From NCBI GenBank assembly GCA_963785725.1, contig CAWAWS010000033.1, positions 256,001-320,000 of the forward strand: a DNA stretch of 64,000 bases, in the 5' to 3' direction. The DNA is from an uncultured delta proteobacterium (GTDB taxonomy: Bacteria; Myxococcota_A; Polyangia; Palsa-1104). Position numbers: made by a program. Within the stretch, counting starts at the first letter, position 1. Each line of letters begins with the position of its first letter. Shown here one piece after another: positions 42,001 through 48,000 of this stretch.

Positions 42001-45000
42001 CATGGCGCGACGGAGAAGGAGAGCGGCATGACACCTCAGCGGCGTGGCCCGGCCATCATCGAGCTCCCGAACGATCTCGAGATCGTCATTGCGCGAGAGC
42101 TCGCGGCGCCGCTCCCACTCGTCTTCGACGTGCTGACGAAGCAGGAGCATCTGCTCAAGACCATCGCGCCATTCAGGGAGCGCGTGAGAGTGTGCTCAGT
42201 CGACCTGCGTGTGGGCGGGAAGTACCACTTCGTGTTCGTGACCGAAGACGGAATCGAGTGCTCGTTTCGTGGCACCTACTTGGAAGTCGAGCCGCCGACC
42301 CGGACCGTCCAGACGTGGCGGTTCGACGGGTGGCCGGATGCAGAGGCCGTCGAGACGCAGGCGCTTCGCGAAGCCGACGGCGTGACGACCTTGACGTGGA
42401 CGCTGGCCTTCCGCGACAAGGCCGGCCGTGCCCGCATGACCAAATTCGATGGCCCCGAGGCGAACTTGGACAAGGTCGAAGATCTCTTGATGTCGTTGCT
42501 CGATCCCGAGGGAATGGATTCCGGGTAATCGCGCTTCGGCTCAGACATCGACTGCAGGCATGAAGGTGCGCGCCGCGTTCCTGTAGAGCATTCGCTGGTA
42601 GACGGCCGCGCTCGTCGGCGTGGCCAACGCGCTCACCCAGTGGTCAGCCTGCTCACGCTCGCCGCCGTCGTCGCCGCCGCGCGCGTTCGCCCGCCCGGCA
42701 CGACCGCTCGCCCCACTCCCGCCCGCTGAGCTCAGCGTCGTCGACTTCGATGGCGCGTCCATGCTCGGCCCACTCCGCGTCGTGATCTCGATCGGCTAAG
42801 GCCACGTCACCTCGCGTCGGCTCATCGGAGCGGTCTCGACTGGCGTCCGCAGGAAGTGTGAATGCGCGCGTGCGATCGCCAGTGAGTGAATGCACTCGAC
42901 CGCGCCGCTGAACGTGACTCAGCGCAAACGGACCGCGTGTGCAATCACATGTTGCTAACAAAGCTACGGACGCAACTCGAAGAGTTGCCGTCGCGACTAC
43001 ACCCGAATTGCGGCGCGCGCAGATAGCGGCGGAACGGCCATTGCAGTCGCCGTCGCGCGCGGAGGAGGGCGCGCGCAGAACGCCTGCGCGGCGGACACGG
43101 GAGCGACAGTCCGGCTGCCGCAGCTCGTGCAAAGCGTCGCTCGCGCGACCCGTCCTCTTCTTGAACGGCTGCAACACAACTTGGAGCGCTGATGTCTGAT
43201 CGACGTCGTCGTGTTGCAATGGGTTGGGCCGTCGCGTCTGCGATCGGGCTGTGCGCGTCTTGCGGGCAGTGTGCCGAGCCGTCGCGCCGCGCACTCTCTT
43301 ATGCTGCTTTGGGCGACGAGCTGGTCGAGGCGGTGCGCACCAAGTTCTTCGATGCCGATCGCGCCGCGCGCTGGGCCGCGCGCAATCGCGGCTTCGCCGG
43401 CGCCATCCGCGACGAGGCGAGCTTCGCGCGCGAGAGCAATCGGCGGCTGGCCGAGCTGGGCGCGTCGCACACCACCTATTTCTCGCCGCTGGCGCCGAAG
43501 ACGGACGAGCTCCGCGCAGTCTTCGAGCCCGAGCTCGGCGCCGCCGACGCGGTGAGCATCGGCGCACAGATCGAGCCGCTCGCCGGGCGCTTCTACGTGG
43601 TGACCCTCTTCCCCGACGGGCCGGCCGCGCACGCCGGGCTCTTGCGTGGCGACGAGATCGTCGCCGTCGATGGGCAGCCGTTCAACCCAGACGGCGCGTG
43701 GCCCGATCGCACACTCGCGGTCGCAATCCGGCGGCACGCCAATGGACCCGTGCAAACGATTGGCGTCACACCGCAGCGGGGCTCGATCAGAAAGGCGTGG
43801 CTGGCGGCCGAGCGCGCCGGCTCGCGCATCGTGACGCGCGCGGGCAAGCAGATCGCTTACGCGTGGATGTGGACCTGCGCCGGCGAGGACTATCAAGATC
43901 TGCTGGCGCAGAGGCTCACGTCCGACTTCGCGGCGGCAGATGCTCTGGTGGTCGATTTTCGCGATGGCTGGGGCGGCTGCAATCCCACCTTCGTGAACCT
44001 GTTCAATCGGGCGGTGCCGACGCTCCGCTCGTTGCGCCGCGACGGCCGCGCCCGTGTCTACGCGCCGGGTTGGCGACGGCCGCTGGTCGTGCTCGTCAAC
44101 CGCCGCACGCGCAGCGGCAAGGAGCTGGTGACGCGCGCGCTGCAGCGCGCCGGGCGTGCCACCGTCGTCGGTGAGCGCAGCGCGGGCGCGGTGCTCGCCG
44201 GCGACCCGATCACCTTGGGCAACGGCGGCATTCTGTACGTGGCCGTCGCCGATCTGCTCGTCGACGAGGAGCGGCTGGAAGGCGTCGGCGTCACGCCCGA
44301 AGTGCCCGTCGACGAGCAGCTGCCGTTTGCCGCCGGCGGCGATCCGCCGCTCGACCGCGCGCTCGAGGTCGCCGCCGACCTGGCCAAGCGCGACGCGGCG
44401 CACCGCTGACCGACCCATGTTCGACCGCGCGAGAGACGGAATCTCTCGATGACCCGCAACCTGGAGGAACAGATGAAAGACGTGAAGGACGAACTGAAGA
44501 AGCTGAGCAACGAGGCGCTGGCGAGCGTTCGCGGCGGTACCGTCACGCTGCGTCCGCCGTCGCTCGGCGGAGTCGGCGGCGGCAGCGCGCTTCTTTGCGG
44601 CGGCGATGCCATGGCCGAGAGCTGCGTTGCCATCATCCACATCCCCGCCAAGCAGTAAGGAGTAGCCACATGTCCTCGAAGATCGCTGGCGCCTATCAGA
44701 CGTCTCGTTACAACTTCTTCGTACCGACGATCGAGGCGACGCTGCTTTACAACTCGCTCCACGGAAGCGTCGTCGGTCTGGGCTCGGCGCAAGCGGCCAA
44801 GCTTGCTTCGGCGCTGGCCAAGCCGGGCGTCGCGGTCTTCGAGGATGATCTACCACCCGAGCTGTTCTTGCAGCTCAGCGAAGGGCACTTCGTCGTCCCG
44901 CCGGGAACGGACGAGCTGGCGCTCATCAAAGAGCGCTTTCGCAAGGCGCGCAATGACGCGCCGGCGATTCTGACGATTACGACGACCATGGATTGCAACC

Positions 45001-48000
45001 TCGGCTGCTACTACTGTTATGAAGAGCGCTCCGGCGATCAGCTGACCCAGCAAGGCGATCTGGAAGCGCTCGTGGCCGAGGCGCGGCGCCTCGTGACGCG
45101 GCAAAACAAGACGACGCTGCATGTCGATTGGTATGGCGGCGAGCCGCTCCTGAACGTCGAGTTTCTCGAGGTGGCGTCGGCGCGTCTGTGTGCGCTCGCC
45201 GATGAGCTCGGCGTGCATTACGAGGCGTCGATCCTGACCAACGGCACCTGTTGGCCGGAGGATGTGGGCGCCTTCGTGGCGCGACATCGCATCGTCCGCG
45301 TGCAGATTCCGTTCGATGGGCTCAAGGAGAATCACGACAAACGAAGGCATTATCGCAAGGGTTATGCGCCTTCGGAGGACGCGTCGAGCTTCGAGCTGGC
45401 CGCCGCGCTCGTCGGAAAGCTGCTCGACCACACGCGCGTCGACATCCGCTGCAATATCGATCGTTCCAACGGCTCGGACTTTGTCGGGCTGATTCGCTTT
45501 GCACGCGAGCAGGGCTGGTTCGACAAGCGCTTCGCCGCGGTCATTCAACCGGCGCGCTTGACGAAATACTCCGAGCACACGTCGTTCATGCACAAGGCCG
45601 AGCTCGTTCGCAGCGACTTCGACACCGTTCGAGAGGAGATCGAGCGCGCGGTTCCCACGCATGTCGAAGTGCAAAACTCGAAAGTAGCGGCGTTTCCCGA
45701 GCCGCGCTTCTCGGTCTGCGCGGCGCTCAATGAAGATGCCGTCGTCGTCGGCGCCAATGGCTCGCTCTATCGCTGTGGCTTGCAGGTGGGCGAAAAGCAC
45801 CGCGTCGTCGGCGAGCTTCATGGCGCCGCGGCCAAACCGGACAACAAGCGCCATTTACCGCTTCTCGGCGCCGCCGGTAATGACGTCGAATTCTGGCGCA
45901 CATTCGATCCGACGGAGCGCCCGCGCTGCTCGGCCTGCACGTTCTTGCCGATCTGTTGGTCGGGTTGCCCCAAGGTGCATCTCGAAGGCGACGCACTGGC
46001 GATCGCACGGCAAGGCGAATACTGGCGCACCAACCTTCCGCGGCAGGTCGCCAACGGGCTCGGGCTTACGCTCGACGGAGAGTACGCGTTTTCGGCGCAA
46101 GACCAGTTCCCGGATGGCGAGCCCGAGACCCTCTCGCACTCGTAACGTGCGCTGAAGACATAGTCCCGCCCATTCTCCGCGACGTCTCGAGTCGAATCCT
46201 CACGACAGCAGATCAGCGCCGTCCTGCAATTCAGTGCAAACGCGCGGCGGCGGCCGTGTGACCTATCGGTGCGACAAATCGCCGCAGGAATGGAATGCAA
46301 TCGTTTATCGGCTAGTCCGAGCGATCGATTGCCTCGACGGCGTGATCTGGACACACCGAGGTTGCGCCAAGTCATCGACAGCTCTCCCTCGCATACGTCA
46401 TCGTCGCGCGCAAAGGAGACTCCCCCCATGACTAACGCAGTATCCCGCAATCGTATTCTCGGTATCGTCGGCACCTTGGTGCTGGCCGGCCTCGCCAGCG
46501 GCTGCACCTCCGGCGTGCTCGTCGACGAGAACTTCGACACCATCACCGATTCGCGCACGGCCAACGCGTCGGTGACGTTCCAGGAGCTGGGTTCGAACCT
46601 CTTGCCCAACGGCACCGAGTACACCTTCAACCTCAACCACCAGCCGTACATCTCGTTCGACGGGTTCCAGGCCGATGGCGCCACGACGTCCAAATACCCG
46701 GGCCTCGTGAACAGCGGGCATGTCATTCCGAACGGCAACTACCGGGTCGAGTTCTTCCAGCCCCAGGTCGGCTTTGCTTACTCGCCGCGCTTCACGCACT
46801 CGTACGCCAACCCGGGCACCTGCACCGATACCTTCTCCGGCGAGAGCGACGGCGACTGTGCGGTGTACTACTTCGAGCTGAACTACAACTGCCCGGTCTG
46901 CACCGGCTCGAGCTGCGGCGGCATCCAGACGCTGCCGACGCACAACGGCTTCCCGGTCATCGATATGTGCGTGTCCTTCTAATCATTCCCGAGGTTCGCT
47001 CGGTCGACCGACCTCGCACTTAGGATCTGGCGGCGCGACGCCGACGGCGATACGCCACGGCCAGCAGCGCGAGGAGGCTCCACATCCCCGCCGGCGAGCT
47101 CGCGCCGCGTTGCATCTCGCAGCTGCAGCCACCGCCGCTGTGACCAGCGCCGCCGCCACCGCCACCGCTGCCGTGACCGGCGTCGACGCCGCCGCCGGGC
47201 ACGCCCGCATCGTCGACGATGCCGCCGTCCGTCGGCGTCGCCGGGTTCGTGAAGTCGACGGCGATCGTGTGATCGGCCGTGACGTTGGTGAACGTATACG
47301 ACGTCGCCGCGCCGGTATCGAGCCCGTCGACGGTCACGTGCTGCACGACATATCCCGCATGCGGCGTGATCGTGAACGTCTGATCTTGGTTTTGCTCGAG
47401 CGTCACCGCGCCGCTCGGGTCGATGTCGCCGTTGGCATCCGCCGACGCCGTAATCGTGTAAGTGGCGACCGGATTCACCGTCAGGCCGTTTTGCTCGCGC
47501 AAGAGCTCGAACAGAATGTCCGGCCGCACGACGACATAATCGGAGTCGAGCGAATTGGCCACGTTCATGAAGCTGGTCGGCGTCACGCCTTGCCACGGCT
47601 GCGCTTGAATGACCAAGAAGCGAGGCTCCTTGCCGTCCCAGCCGGCCGCCGACGACGCGATGAACTGCTGCATCGCTTGCTCGTTCGTGCAGTAGTTGCA
47701 GGAGAGCGCCATGCTCGGCAGCTTGTTGTCGTAGATGGTCAGCCCGCCGCCGGTGTTCTGCGCGGTCAAGCCGAGCAGCGACGGCGCGTTATCGGCGTAG
47801 CTGTTGCCCACGTCGAGGTCGATGCCGCCCGTGATCGTGTTCCACACGGTGATGATGCGGAAGCCGGCGCGCTGCTCGTACGTGTCCGTCTTGGCGATGA
47901 ACTGTTGCAGCTGGCCGGCGTCGGTCCACGAGTTCGGATAGGTGTAGCCATAACCGGACGGGCCGGACAAGATGCAGTCGTTGTCGGTGGCGCTCGTCCG

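Follow-up and report, generated by a model that had tools for sequence, protein, structure and literature searches.

A gene for a small two-cysteine peptide and the iron-sulfur enzyme gene directly behind it constitute an unnamed peptide-modification system whose two parts are paired across many bacteria. From the anatomy of the pair, we infer that it belongs to the RiPPs. The stretch of DNA analysed here (the window, 64,000 nt) carries both genes on the plus strand. The precursor peptide ORF (44449-44658, 69 aa, with Cys50 and Cys59) ends 11 nt before a radical SAM/SPASM maturase (44670-46145, 491 aa, recognized from its ORF and from NCBIfam and Pfam scans), and AAGGAG precedes the enzyme's ATG. 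An earlier enzyme start, TTG at 44595, was rejected because it overlaps the peptide gene and the ATG at 44670 has a ribosome-binding site. The true window precursor may begin at Met9 (44473) and comprise 61 aa, since the GGAGG in front of this codon (44463-44467) is a stronger ribosome-binding site than that at 44449. Upstream, a gene for an S41 serine peptidase with a PDZ domain, a probable accessory protease (43192-44409, plus strand; PF03572, PF17820), has its stop codon 39 nt before the precursor start. The gene downstream, at 46428-46982, was rejected as part of the cassette, as its homologues do not recur in as many as three other loci, and a scan for promoters and terminators found nothing that exceeded shuffled sequence.

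The association of peptide and enzyme extends far beyond the window. A family peptide lies within 260 nt upstream of the enzyme gene in 95 of 98 loci (18/18 from GTDB and 77/80 from metagenomes), compared with 1 match among 325 control genes put through the identical filter. In two of the three peptide-less loci, L030 and L083, the sequence starts no earlier than the enzyme gene itself; L040, with 482 nt of upstream sequence and no peptide, is a true miss. The 95 loci hold 76 distinct peptides, and a protein collection contains 298 peptide clusters. WP_343787727.1 and WP_343787729.1 are another precursor and enzyme of the family. A family profile that excluded the window peptide placed it first among 131,051 segments from a six-frame translation of its genome, with a weak score (13.8 bits, E 0.28), and two near-identical variants of the peptide occur in other samples. 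The preliminary description had placed a precursor and its maturase at these two ORFs; their positions and their pairing hold, as do TIGR04463 as the enzyme's best NCBIfam match (168 bits, cut-off 525) and the claim that no family model covers the peptides, none of the 68 aligned members reaching an E-value better than 0.002 in NCBIfam or 0.01 in Pfam.

The family core reads A-R-L-C-x5/6-C-[LIV]-A, followed by two hydrophobic residues and D or E. Exactly two cysteines are present in 185 of 186 distinct peptides, and the positions before the first are A in 96%, R in 98% and L in 100%, percentages that lean to the main clade in that 120 of the inputs were the top-scoring profile hits. The motif first proposed, LCGG-x-C-A, proved too narrow: it omits the conserved Arg, and its second Gly is conserved in only 84% of the 186 peptides. 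The loop between the cysteines has 5 residues in 162 peptides and 6 in 23, and 8 in the window copy only, whose longer loop had already been noted. Three places before each Cys sits a small residue, Ala in 96% at the first and Thr or Ser in 91% at the second (Ala at both in the window). Gly occupies the third place before the second Cys in 3% of peptides and the third place after the first in 15%. An aromatic residue or His (W/Y/F/H) is found in the core of 35/186 peptides, at no conserved position. Tails past the second Cys run from 6 to 28 residues, and 35/186 peptides end exactly at the six-residue minimum.

The window peptide is an outlier of this family. Its core (residues 47-65, 44587-44643, plus strand) reads A-L-L-C-x8-C-V-A, with no Arg before the first Cys, and continues into a hydrophobic strand. 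Its first 30 residues (44449-44538, plus strand) are a double-glycine export leader, as previously suggested, with V at -4, L at -7 and L at -12, the hydrophobic positions given for such leaders in a figure legend of PMC10885120; the match to PF10439 is weak (16.2 bits, cut-off 27.1). Two search patterns found no other double-glycine leader in the genome, and within the family only L001 shares one with hydrophobic -4, -7 and -12 residues, while the L077 peptide carries a Tat-like leader. The match to the family profile starts at residue 31, where the window peptide has a V-x-L-x-x-P-x-L motif (residues 31-39, 44539-44565, plus strand). The same motif marks the ordinary family leader (V 78%, L 56%, P 62%, L 84%), which is conserved over about 45 residues, and it is probably the strand that the enzyme's RRE binds. 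The double-glycine leader is an add-on in front of a probable recognition motif that was kept, a leader swap inside one lineage.

The enzyme begins with an RRE-like domain (about residues 8-96, 44691-44957, plus strand), strands followed by helices in an AlphaFold2 model with a mean pLDDT of 87, whose fold matches CteB and TigE over the full length. The SAM-binding cluster motif CxxxCxxC (C109, C113, C116; 44994-45017, plus strand) is invariant in our alignment (A1), and the SPASM domain (45717-45968, plus strand) aligns with six cysteines (C350, C369, C420, C423, C429, C433). Six, rather than seven, are found in 52 of 53 complete enzymes. Gly449 of the window enzyme occupies the seventh-Cys position of relatives, L040 is the sole complete enzyme with a Cys there, and a sister clade also lacks it. 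Aligned to the CrpC pattern, C350, C369 and C433 form a three-Cys auxiliary cluster I (AuxI) that is predicted to keep an open iron site. His437 and Asp441 are near-invariant and could act as alternative ligands in auxiliary cluster II (AuxII). A six-Cys SPASM domain offers a natural test of the function of AuxII, a cluster described as enigmatic in PMC13692751.

Comparison with characterized systems places the enzyme in the RRE-SPASM maturase branch. CrpC (TIGR04463), which makes thioethers with a loss of 2 Da per Cys (PMC13692751), shares with the family the RRE, radical SAM and SPASM domains, a three-Cys AuxI and a Cys-containing substrate next door. However, its SPASM domain has seven cysteines with a four-Cys AuxII, and its substrate CrpA is a 29-kDa Cys-repeat protein, whereas the family substrate is a two-Cys peptide of 60-80 aa. 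In ranthipeptide systems, too, an RRE-rSAM-SPASM maturase stands beside a Cys-containing precursor. Among the ranthisynthases (CteB/CteA, PDB 5WGG and 5WHY; PapB), CteB is the best PDB sequence match and the best Foldseek match to the full-length model (491 aligned columns, TM 0.59/0.65), with the domains in the same order. Even so, identity to CteB is only 14-16%, the enzyme scores 95 bits against the PapB model (cut-off 340) and 51 against the SCIFF model (cut-off 425), and the substrates of this type have six cysteines to the family's two. At the six active-site positions defined in PMC10288494, mapped through one alignment, CteB has FFTSHQ, 44/53 loci have Y-Y-I-S-G-L and the window has Y-Y-L-P-G-L; beside an AuxI Cys, CteB has His where the family has Gly. 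Against the uncharacterised NCBIfam models of the same branch, Clo7bot (TIGR04334), FlmE/OhkG (NF052473), CefB (NF038107) and geopeptide (TIGR04280), the enzyme scores 117-135 bits (cut-offs 400-600); unlike the family, Flm/Ohk precursors carry a DD(I/V)LF motif and come with arginases (PMC12703449). Models of triceptide and cyclophane families match still less (YhhB 41.5 bits, cut-off 445; GrrM 37.3, cut-off 310), and we rejected cyclophane chemistry since the core has no conserved aromatic.

We propose, with a probability of roughly two in three, that the pair consists of a RiPP precursor and a thioether-forming radical SAM maturase. The RRE would bind the V-x-L-x-x-P-x-L strand of the peptide. 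By analogy with relatives, the SAM cluster would then generate a 5'-deoxyadenosyl radical that abstracts hydrogen from a residue close to a Cys, and the Cys thiolate, held on the open iron of AuxI, would close a C-S thioether. Two cysteines would give two small independent rings and an expected mass change of -4 Da. The preferred register would be acceptor-x-x-Cys, given the small residue that recurs at the third position ahead of each Cys regardless of loop length, with Cys-x-x-acceptor, as in CrpA, the alternative.

Much of the evidence above speaks for thioethers: the pairing itself, the near-constant two cysteines, the lack of a conserved aromatic, the RRE-rSAM-SPASM order, CteB as top structural match, the CrpC family as best HMM and an AuxI with three cysteines as in CrpC. 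Outgroup loci add to this, as 7-8 of 12 whose enzymes have a C-terminal seventh Cys show, by eye, a Cys-containing small ORF beside the enzyme; four of these ORFs (L146, L147, L155, L156) are Cys-rich with an N-terminal hydrophobic-x-x-Pro motif. Against thioethers stand the active-site residues, which are unlike those of a textbook ranthisynthase, and the conserved 'leader', which is longer than an RRE needs. In addition, no acceptor fits all members as a non-alpha carbon, given that some of them have Gly at the candidate sites Cys2-3 and Cys1+3; variable residues, Gly included, at these sites would fit a sactipeptide-like thioether from S to the alpha carbon. A predicted complex of enzyme residues 6-482 (from the alignment) and peptide residues 30-69 scored 0.18, evidence neither way.

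The genes around the pair bear on the fate of the product. In L001, the locus of the window enzyme's sister (support 0.995), a double-glycine leader, an S41 peptidase and an adjacent C39 transporter form one cluster. The window genome has a single C39 transporter, and no precursor was seen in the 20 kb around it. Both observations favour the thioether RiPP; what counts against it is that the transporter of the window genome lies on a different contig and shares only 32% identity with its counterpart in L001. S41 homologues directly adjoin the cassette in 14/99 loci, and we count the upstream S41 gene of the window as part of the locus. Its product scores 69.9 bits against PF03572 (cut-off 24) and below all named NCBIfam S41 cut-offs, has a T-R-S-G-K-E motif with Ser308 and a hydrophobic, lipoprotein-like N-terminus (by eye and hydropathy window only), and is 48% identical to the S41 of L001 and 32-33% to the other five compared. 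Inherited synteny was rejected as the source of this adjacency, the subfamily occurring in 1 of 400 other phylum genomes, there with no cassette in view. Trimming of long C-terminal tails was likewise rejected, since tails at S41 loci (7-19 residues) fall inside the family's range.

In the window and L001, we suggest that modification would be followed by cleavage at GG with C39 export, and then by trimming through the exported S41. Cytolysin (CylB/CylA) and lichenicidin (LicT/LicP) use a comparable PCAT plus serine protease (PMC10885120), and L001 likewise combines a GG leader, C39 and an exported serine protease, the window having its exporter in trans. Here, by contrast, the second protease is an S41 and the modification is by radical SAM, and most members have neither. 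Among the 20 of 222 matches listed, the literature records no S41 role in RiPP leader removal, which counts against the thioether reading. The family would tie S41 peptidases to RiPP maturation. Most copies come without exporter or protease, and their product probably stays in the cell; with no protease in most loci, it is not evident how a core would be released, a further point against.

A possible role, compatible with thioether formation, is that the two genes on their own work inside the cell as an anti-phage system, with the modified, possibly uncleaved, mini-protein as effector and the window's exported form derived from it. We hold this tentatively, and the odds are against it. On a Bradyrhizobium plasmid (8 plasmid records), the pair is flanked by SIR2-HerA plus AbiE on one side and a CBASS operon on the other; a GTG start for the enzyme there overlaps the stop codon of the peptide gene. 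Strong defence-gene matches occur within about 8 kb in 7/30 long loci, compared with defence-specific matches in 0/29 control windows (Fisher p 0.011; at lineage level 4/26, p 0.044); however, this filter was chosen post hoc, after the controls had been seen, and at the raw threshold the figures are 7/30 and 3/29 (p 0.30). Four of the seven loci belong to one enzyme cluster, and since the controls were drawn from unremarkable chromosomal regions of 8 genomes, the signal may mean only mobile cargo. The spread is patchy (11/301 genomes of one genus, 1/401 of another phylum at a family-level score, 0/400 of the window's phylum) and exporters are rare, which fits such a role; on the other hand, none of the window's 15 neighbour genes has a PADLOC match, four loci adjoin other rSAM-RiPP clusters instead, and relatives of peptide and enzyme were not found in viral collections. 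PADLOC models gave a weak viperin cross-match for the enzyme (E 2e-9) and none for two peptides.

There are two precedents: lanthiphages, 26.6% of which lie near defence systems versus 4.7% at random and which are mostly transporterless (10.1101/2024.06.26.600839), and the HXS system with its rSAM-matured effector (PMC13128918). The lanthiphages resemble the family in their modified ribosomal product, their enrichment near defence genes and their few transporters, and HXS in its effector; both use other enzymes and substrates, and the family's enrichment is modest and its role predicted from genes. Should the defence signal hold up, the family would be an example of a thioether RiPP that acts against phages. 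The fuller scheme, in which a six-Cys-SPASM enzyme thioether-staples a two-Cys mini-protein acting in the cell and some lineages re-routed the product to secretion through a double-glycine or Tat leader and a recruited S41, we regard as rather doubtful.

It is unlikely that the same pair carries out other chemistry. The enzyme would then form C-C links, cyclopropanes or D-amino acids at the invariant aliphatics around the cysteines (A-R-L and L-A-L-V), and the Cys pair would be left as a disulfide or metal site. Near-invariant non-Cys residues do flank both cysteines, Gly replaces CteB's His beside the AuxI Cys, loop length ranges from 5 to 8, and TigE, described as a cyclopropylglycine synthase, matches the enzyme model as well as CteB (TM 0.62/0.67). 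The fold model of the peptide is of low confidence (pLDDT 62, pTM 0.29) and sets the two cysteines on facing hairpin strands. Nevertheless, the closest scored families and the outgroup loci have Cys-rich substrates, and the AuxI sequence retains its open site. Disulfides are unlikely in the cytoplasm, and most copies have no export signal.

Far less probable is that the peptide is a stoichiometric subunit, one Cys of which supplies the missing fourth AuxII ligand, in a complex that acts on another target. The sole enzyme with a seventh Cys does come from L040, the sole locus that shows no peptide although its upstream sequence is present, and the long conserved 'leader' would suit a subunit. 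However, L040 is a single case, the sister clade (context unseen) likewise lacks the seventh Cys, and His437 and Asp441 could serve as ligands. Export leaders in two lineages and the Tat-like one in L077 suit a product and not part of an enzyme that works in the cytoplasm. That the window peptide lies beside the enzyme by coincidence, or is no real gene, an idea for which only its E of 0.28 speaks, is rejected as virtually impossible by the pairing and cluster counts, its first rank in the genome and its 11-nt distance from the enzyme.

The family was not found in the searchable papers and supplements, namely the PMC10288494 spreadsheet, parts of PMC12710340 and PMC7470986, and the accessible portion of PMC13692751. 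The curated sacti- and ranthipeptide precursor set of PMC10288494 (3,422 rows) has no family motif and one unrelated LCGG match. Literature searches returned unrelated papers only for the core motif, CrpC work only for TIGR04463, an unrelated match only for Bradyrhizobium with rSAM and nothing direct for OhkG/FlmE, and the ESM Atlas gave no usable match for a family peptide or a recurrent membrane neighbour. Four points go beyond the preliminary description: the S41 gene, a SPASM domain with six cysteines, the motif behind GG that the RRE probably binds, and the defence-island setting of some family members. As this unnamed rSAM-RiPP family is compact and has members in cultured bacteria, two genes in E. 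coli would suffice to read its chemistry.

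The 69-aa ORF at 44449-44658 (+) and the 491-aa radical SAM/SPASM enzyme at 44670-46145 (+) named in the preliminary description lie where it placed them, separated by 11 nt. Its proposal that they form a precursor-maturase pair is borne out by co-occurrence: an ORF with two cysteines sits just 5' of the enzyme in 95 of 98 loci (18 GTDB loci plus the best 80 of 468 metagenome matches), compared with 1 of 325 control genes passed through the same filter. Two of the three loci lacking a peptide have no upstream sequence at all, and the third, L040, is a genuine miss. The enzyme's best NCBIfam score is indeed to TIGR04463, at 168 bits against a cut-off of 525, and NCBIfam and Pfam scans returned no family model for the peptides. 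A profile search yielded 298 peptide clusters at the 90% identity level; of the 120 listed, all have the source name 'hypothetical' and none carries a Pfam domain. By score or substrate, the pair falls outside the TIGR04463, PapB, SCIFF, Clo7bot, CefB, geopeptide and cyclophane families. The family was not found among the 3,422 precursors of PMC10288494 or described in the full-text literature searched; an unnamed listing elsewhere, for instance in subscription-journal surveys, is possible. We conclude that the pair is real and unnamed. By analogy, it is predicted to work like a thioether RiPP maturase that depends on a peptide-recognition domain (RRE).

Named hosts include Bradyrhizobium, Acidobacteriota, Gemmatimonadota, a cyanobacterium, Wandonia and Myxococcales. 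Going by sampled genomes, the distribution is patchy: none of 400 others from the window's phylum yielded a member, while in one sampled genus 11 of 301 genomes did and in a further phylum, at family-level score, 1 of 401. The latter phylum also holds outgroup seven-cysteine enzymes (L146-L157) with unnamed candidate precursors of their own: Cys-rich peptides of 43-70 aa (L146, L147, L155, L156) and acidic peptides of 43-46 aa with one or two cysteines (L150, L151, L153, L157).

We aligned 186 distinct peptides, a set biased toward the main clade because 120 of its inputs were top profile hits. A basic N-terminus typically precedes three conserved hydrophobic stretches (LIVSD, P-x-V-x-L-K-P-G and V-x-L-V-D-P-x-L) and the core A-R-L-C-x5/6-C-L-A-L-V-[DE]-[IVL]. 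Exactly two cysteines occur in 185 of the 186, no aromatic residue is conserved, and the shortest C-terminal end stops six residues past the second cysteine, with a variable tail beyond. The window peptide is an odd member; its longer loop (8 residues) and double-glycine (GG) leader both hold, the leader replacing the usual N-terminal half, and it additionally has Leu for Arg. It keeps V-x-L-x-x-P-x-L directly after GG. Even with this peptide left out of the build, the family profile aligns to it from residue 31 onward and places it at the top of its own genome, albeit weakly (E 0.28). We infer that V-x-L-x-x-P-x-L is a putative RRE-binding strand; a similar hydrophobic-x-x-Pro stretch opens the outgroup precursors. 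For a family peptide, AlphaFold2 predicted no fold with confidence. One member (L077:57-380) has a twin-arginine-like signal fused to its front (a weak match to TIGR01412, E 0.004), predicted to be a second, independent export tag.

Most likely, each cysteine would bond to a carbon at a distance of three residues, so that the peptide would carry two small thioether rings. Across the 186 peptides, a small residue is kept at -3 of both cysteines whatever the loop length, and an acceptor-x-x-Cys register is therefore favored. The window core (C-G-G-D and C-V-A-I) is also compatible with the Cys-x-x-acceptor motifs of CrpA, the substrate of the thioether maturase CrpC (CAGD and CPLV, PMC13692751). 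The acceptor could be an alpha or a non-alpha carbon.

The enzyme combines an N-terminal RRE-like domain, a CxxxCxxC motif and a SPASM domain. Its structure model is confident (pLDDT 87) and matches the thioether synthase CteB and the cyclopropylglycine synthase TigE over the full length. In our mapping through the CteB alignment, the six active-site positions of PMC10288494 spell YYISGL in most loci (44 of 53) and YYLPGL in the window enzyme, whereas CteB has FFTSHQ; so mapped, these positions neither confirm nor exclude thioether chemistry. C-C bond formation or epimerization by the enzyme, with a disulfide between the cysteines, is in our judgment unlikely. Pro214 is unique to the window enzyme; the rest of the family has Ser or Thr there.

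The thioether maturase CrpC uses three cysteines for auxiliary cluster AuxI and four for AuxII, according to PMC13692751. In the family, six SPASM cysteines are invariant; at the seventh position, 52 of 53 complete enzymes have another residue, usually Gly or Ser (the set takes one sequence from each 85% cluster and a few besides; truncated L084, too-short L066 and frameshifted L018 fall outside it). AuxII would therefore be held by three cysteines, with its remaining site either open or filled by a ligand other than Cys, and the near-invariant His437 and Asp441 are candidate ligands. L040:1-1915 encodes the sole complete family enzyme with the seventh cysteine and is also the sole peptide-less locus with upstream sequence (482 nt); this single case favors a structural role for the peptide as AuxII ligand, which we regard as very improbable. 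At 62.9% GC, the enzyme gene lies below the genome (67.9%) and the neighboring S41 peptidase gene (71.4%), a mild sign of separate origin. On the Bradyrhizobium plasmid (L103:15001-16407, NZ_CP030060.1), the RefSeq radical SAM gene starts 225 nt past the match start and lacks most of the RRE, possibly the reason the family was overlooked; in its close relative L009, a GTG start overlaps the peptide's stop.

That 980-kb plasmid has the bare pair flanked by SIR2-HerA plus AbiE on one side and a CBASS operon on the other. We scanned with PADLOC 264 of 271 picked neighbors of 30 long loci (seven enzyme fragments, antisense ORFs and precursors were dropped) and 285 of 296 genes in 29 of 30 control windows at fixed offsets in 8 genomes. 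At E 1e-40, a threshold chosen after the test loci were seen but before the controls, 7 of 30 test loci and 3 of 29 controls had a PADLOC match (p 0.30). The test matches are CBASS, SIR2-HerA, AbiE, pAgo, capP and PDC-S24 genes; we read the control matches as two sigma-54 activators and one Ser/Thr kinase. A post hoc split on defense-specific genes gives 7/30 versus 0/29 (p 0.011), or 4/26 by lineage (p 0.044). Lanthiphages offer a yardstick, with defense systems within 23 genes in 26.6% versus 4.7% at random (10.1101/2024.06.26.600839). A defense role nevertheless seems doubtful: the control windows are not mobile islands, kin among the test loci are not independent, PADLOC found no defense neighbor among 15 genes around the window pair, and no copy of peptide or enzyme turned up in the viral collections searched. 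Moreover, four loci adjoin other unassigned rSAM-RiPP clusters (L037:1169-2395, L044:1175-6620, L058:257-1600, L090:9393-11133). These are XyeB-like (359/450 bits), YhhB/FxsB-like with HExxH and 2OG oxygenases, DarW/DarE-like (367/650) and TIGR04463-like, the last with an 83-aa peptide that we take to be Nif11-like.

The S41 peptidase gene at 43192-44409, omitted from the preliminary description, is part of the locus. In 14 of 99 loci, a homologue sharing the T-[RT]-S-G-[KN]-E motif directly adjoins the cassette, either upstream or downstream. These loci represent seven lineages at three to four places in the enzyme tree; the share is 4/27 among clusters whose two flanks each extend 1.5 kb or more (window and L090 left out). 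The subfamily is rare, occurring in 1 of 400 genomes of the window's phylum. L001, whose enzyme is sister to the window's (support 0.995), likewise has a GG leader and an upstream S41 gene with a lipoprotein-like N-terminus, plus a C39 transporter directly downstream. The window's genome has a single C39 transporter, on another contig (G000:C26:63374-68684), with an adaptor and outer-membrane partner as labeled from sequence; no precursor was seen within 20 kb of it. Two-step processing like that of cytolysin and lichenicidin (review PMC10885120) is plausible for the window and L001 copies. The whole word 'S41' is absent from the main text of that review, its table aside.

A second recurrent neighbor, absent from the window, is an unnamed 330-aa protein family beside the cassette in four lineages (L081:9478-10461, L060:6559-7527, L087:1153-2253, L005:9471-10463, L013:11582-12577). 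It has N-terminal membrane helices and a probably beta-rich domain, its copies are 23-31% identical to that of L081, and Pfam and Atlas gave no match. Directly 3' of the window enzyme, a 184-aa lipoprotein-like ORF (46428-46982, +) with a Cys-rich C-terminal half matches no family model and does not recur in the other loci. Farther away, at 37384-39654 (-), lie three short genes, presumably for DsrE/F-type sulfur-relay proteins, followed by what we take to be a carbonic-anhydrase-like gene.
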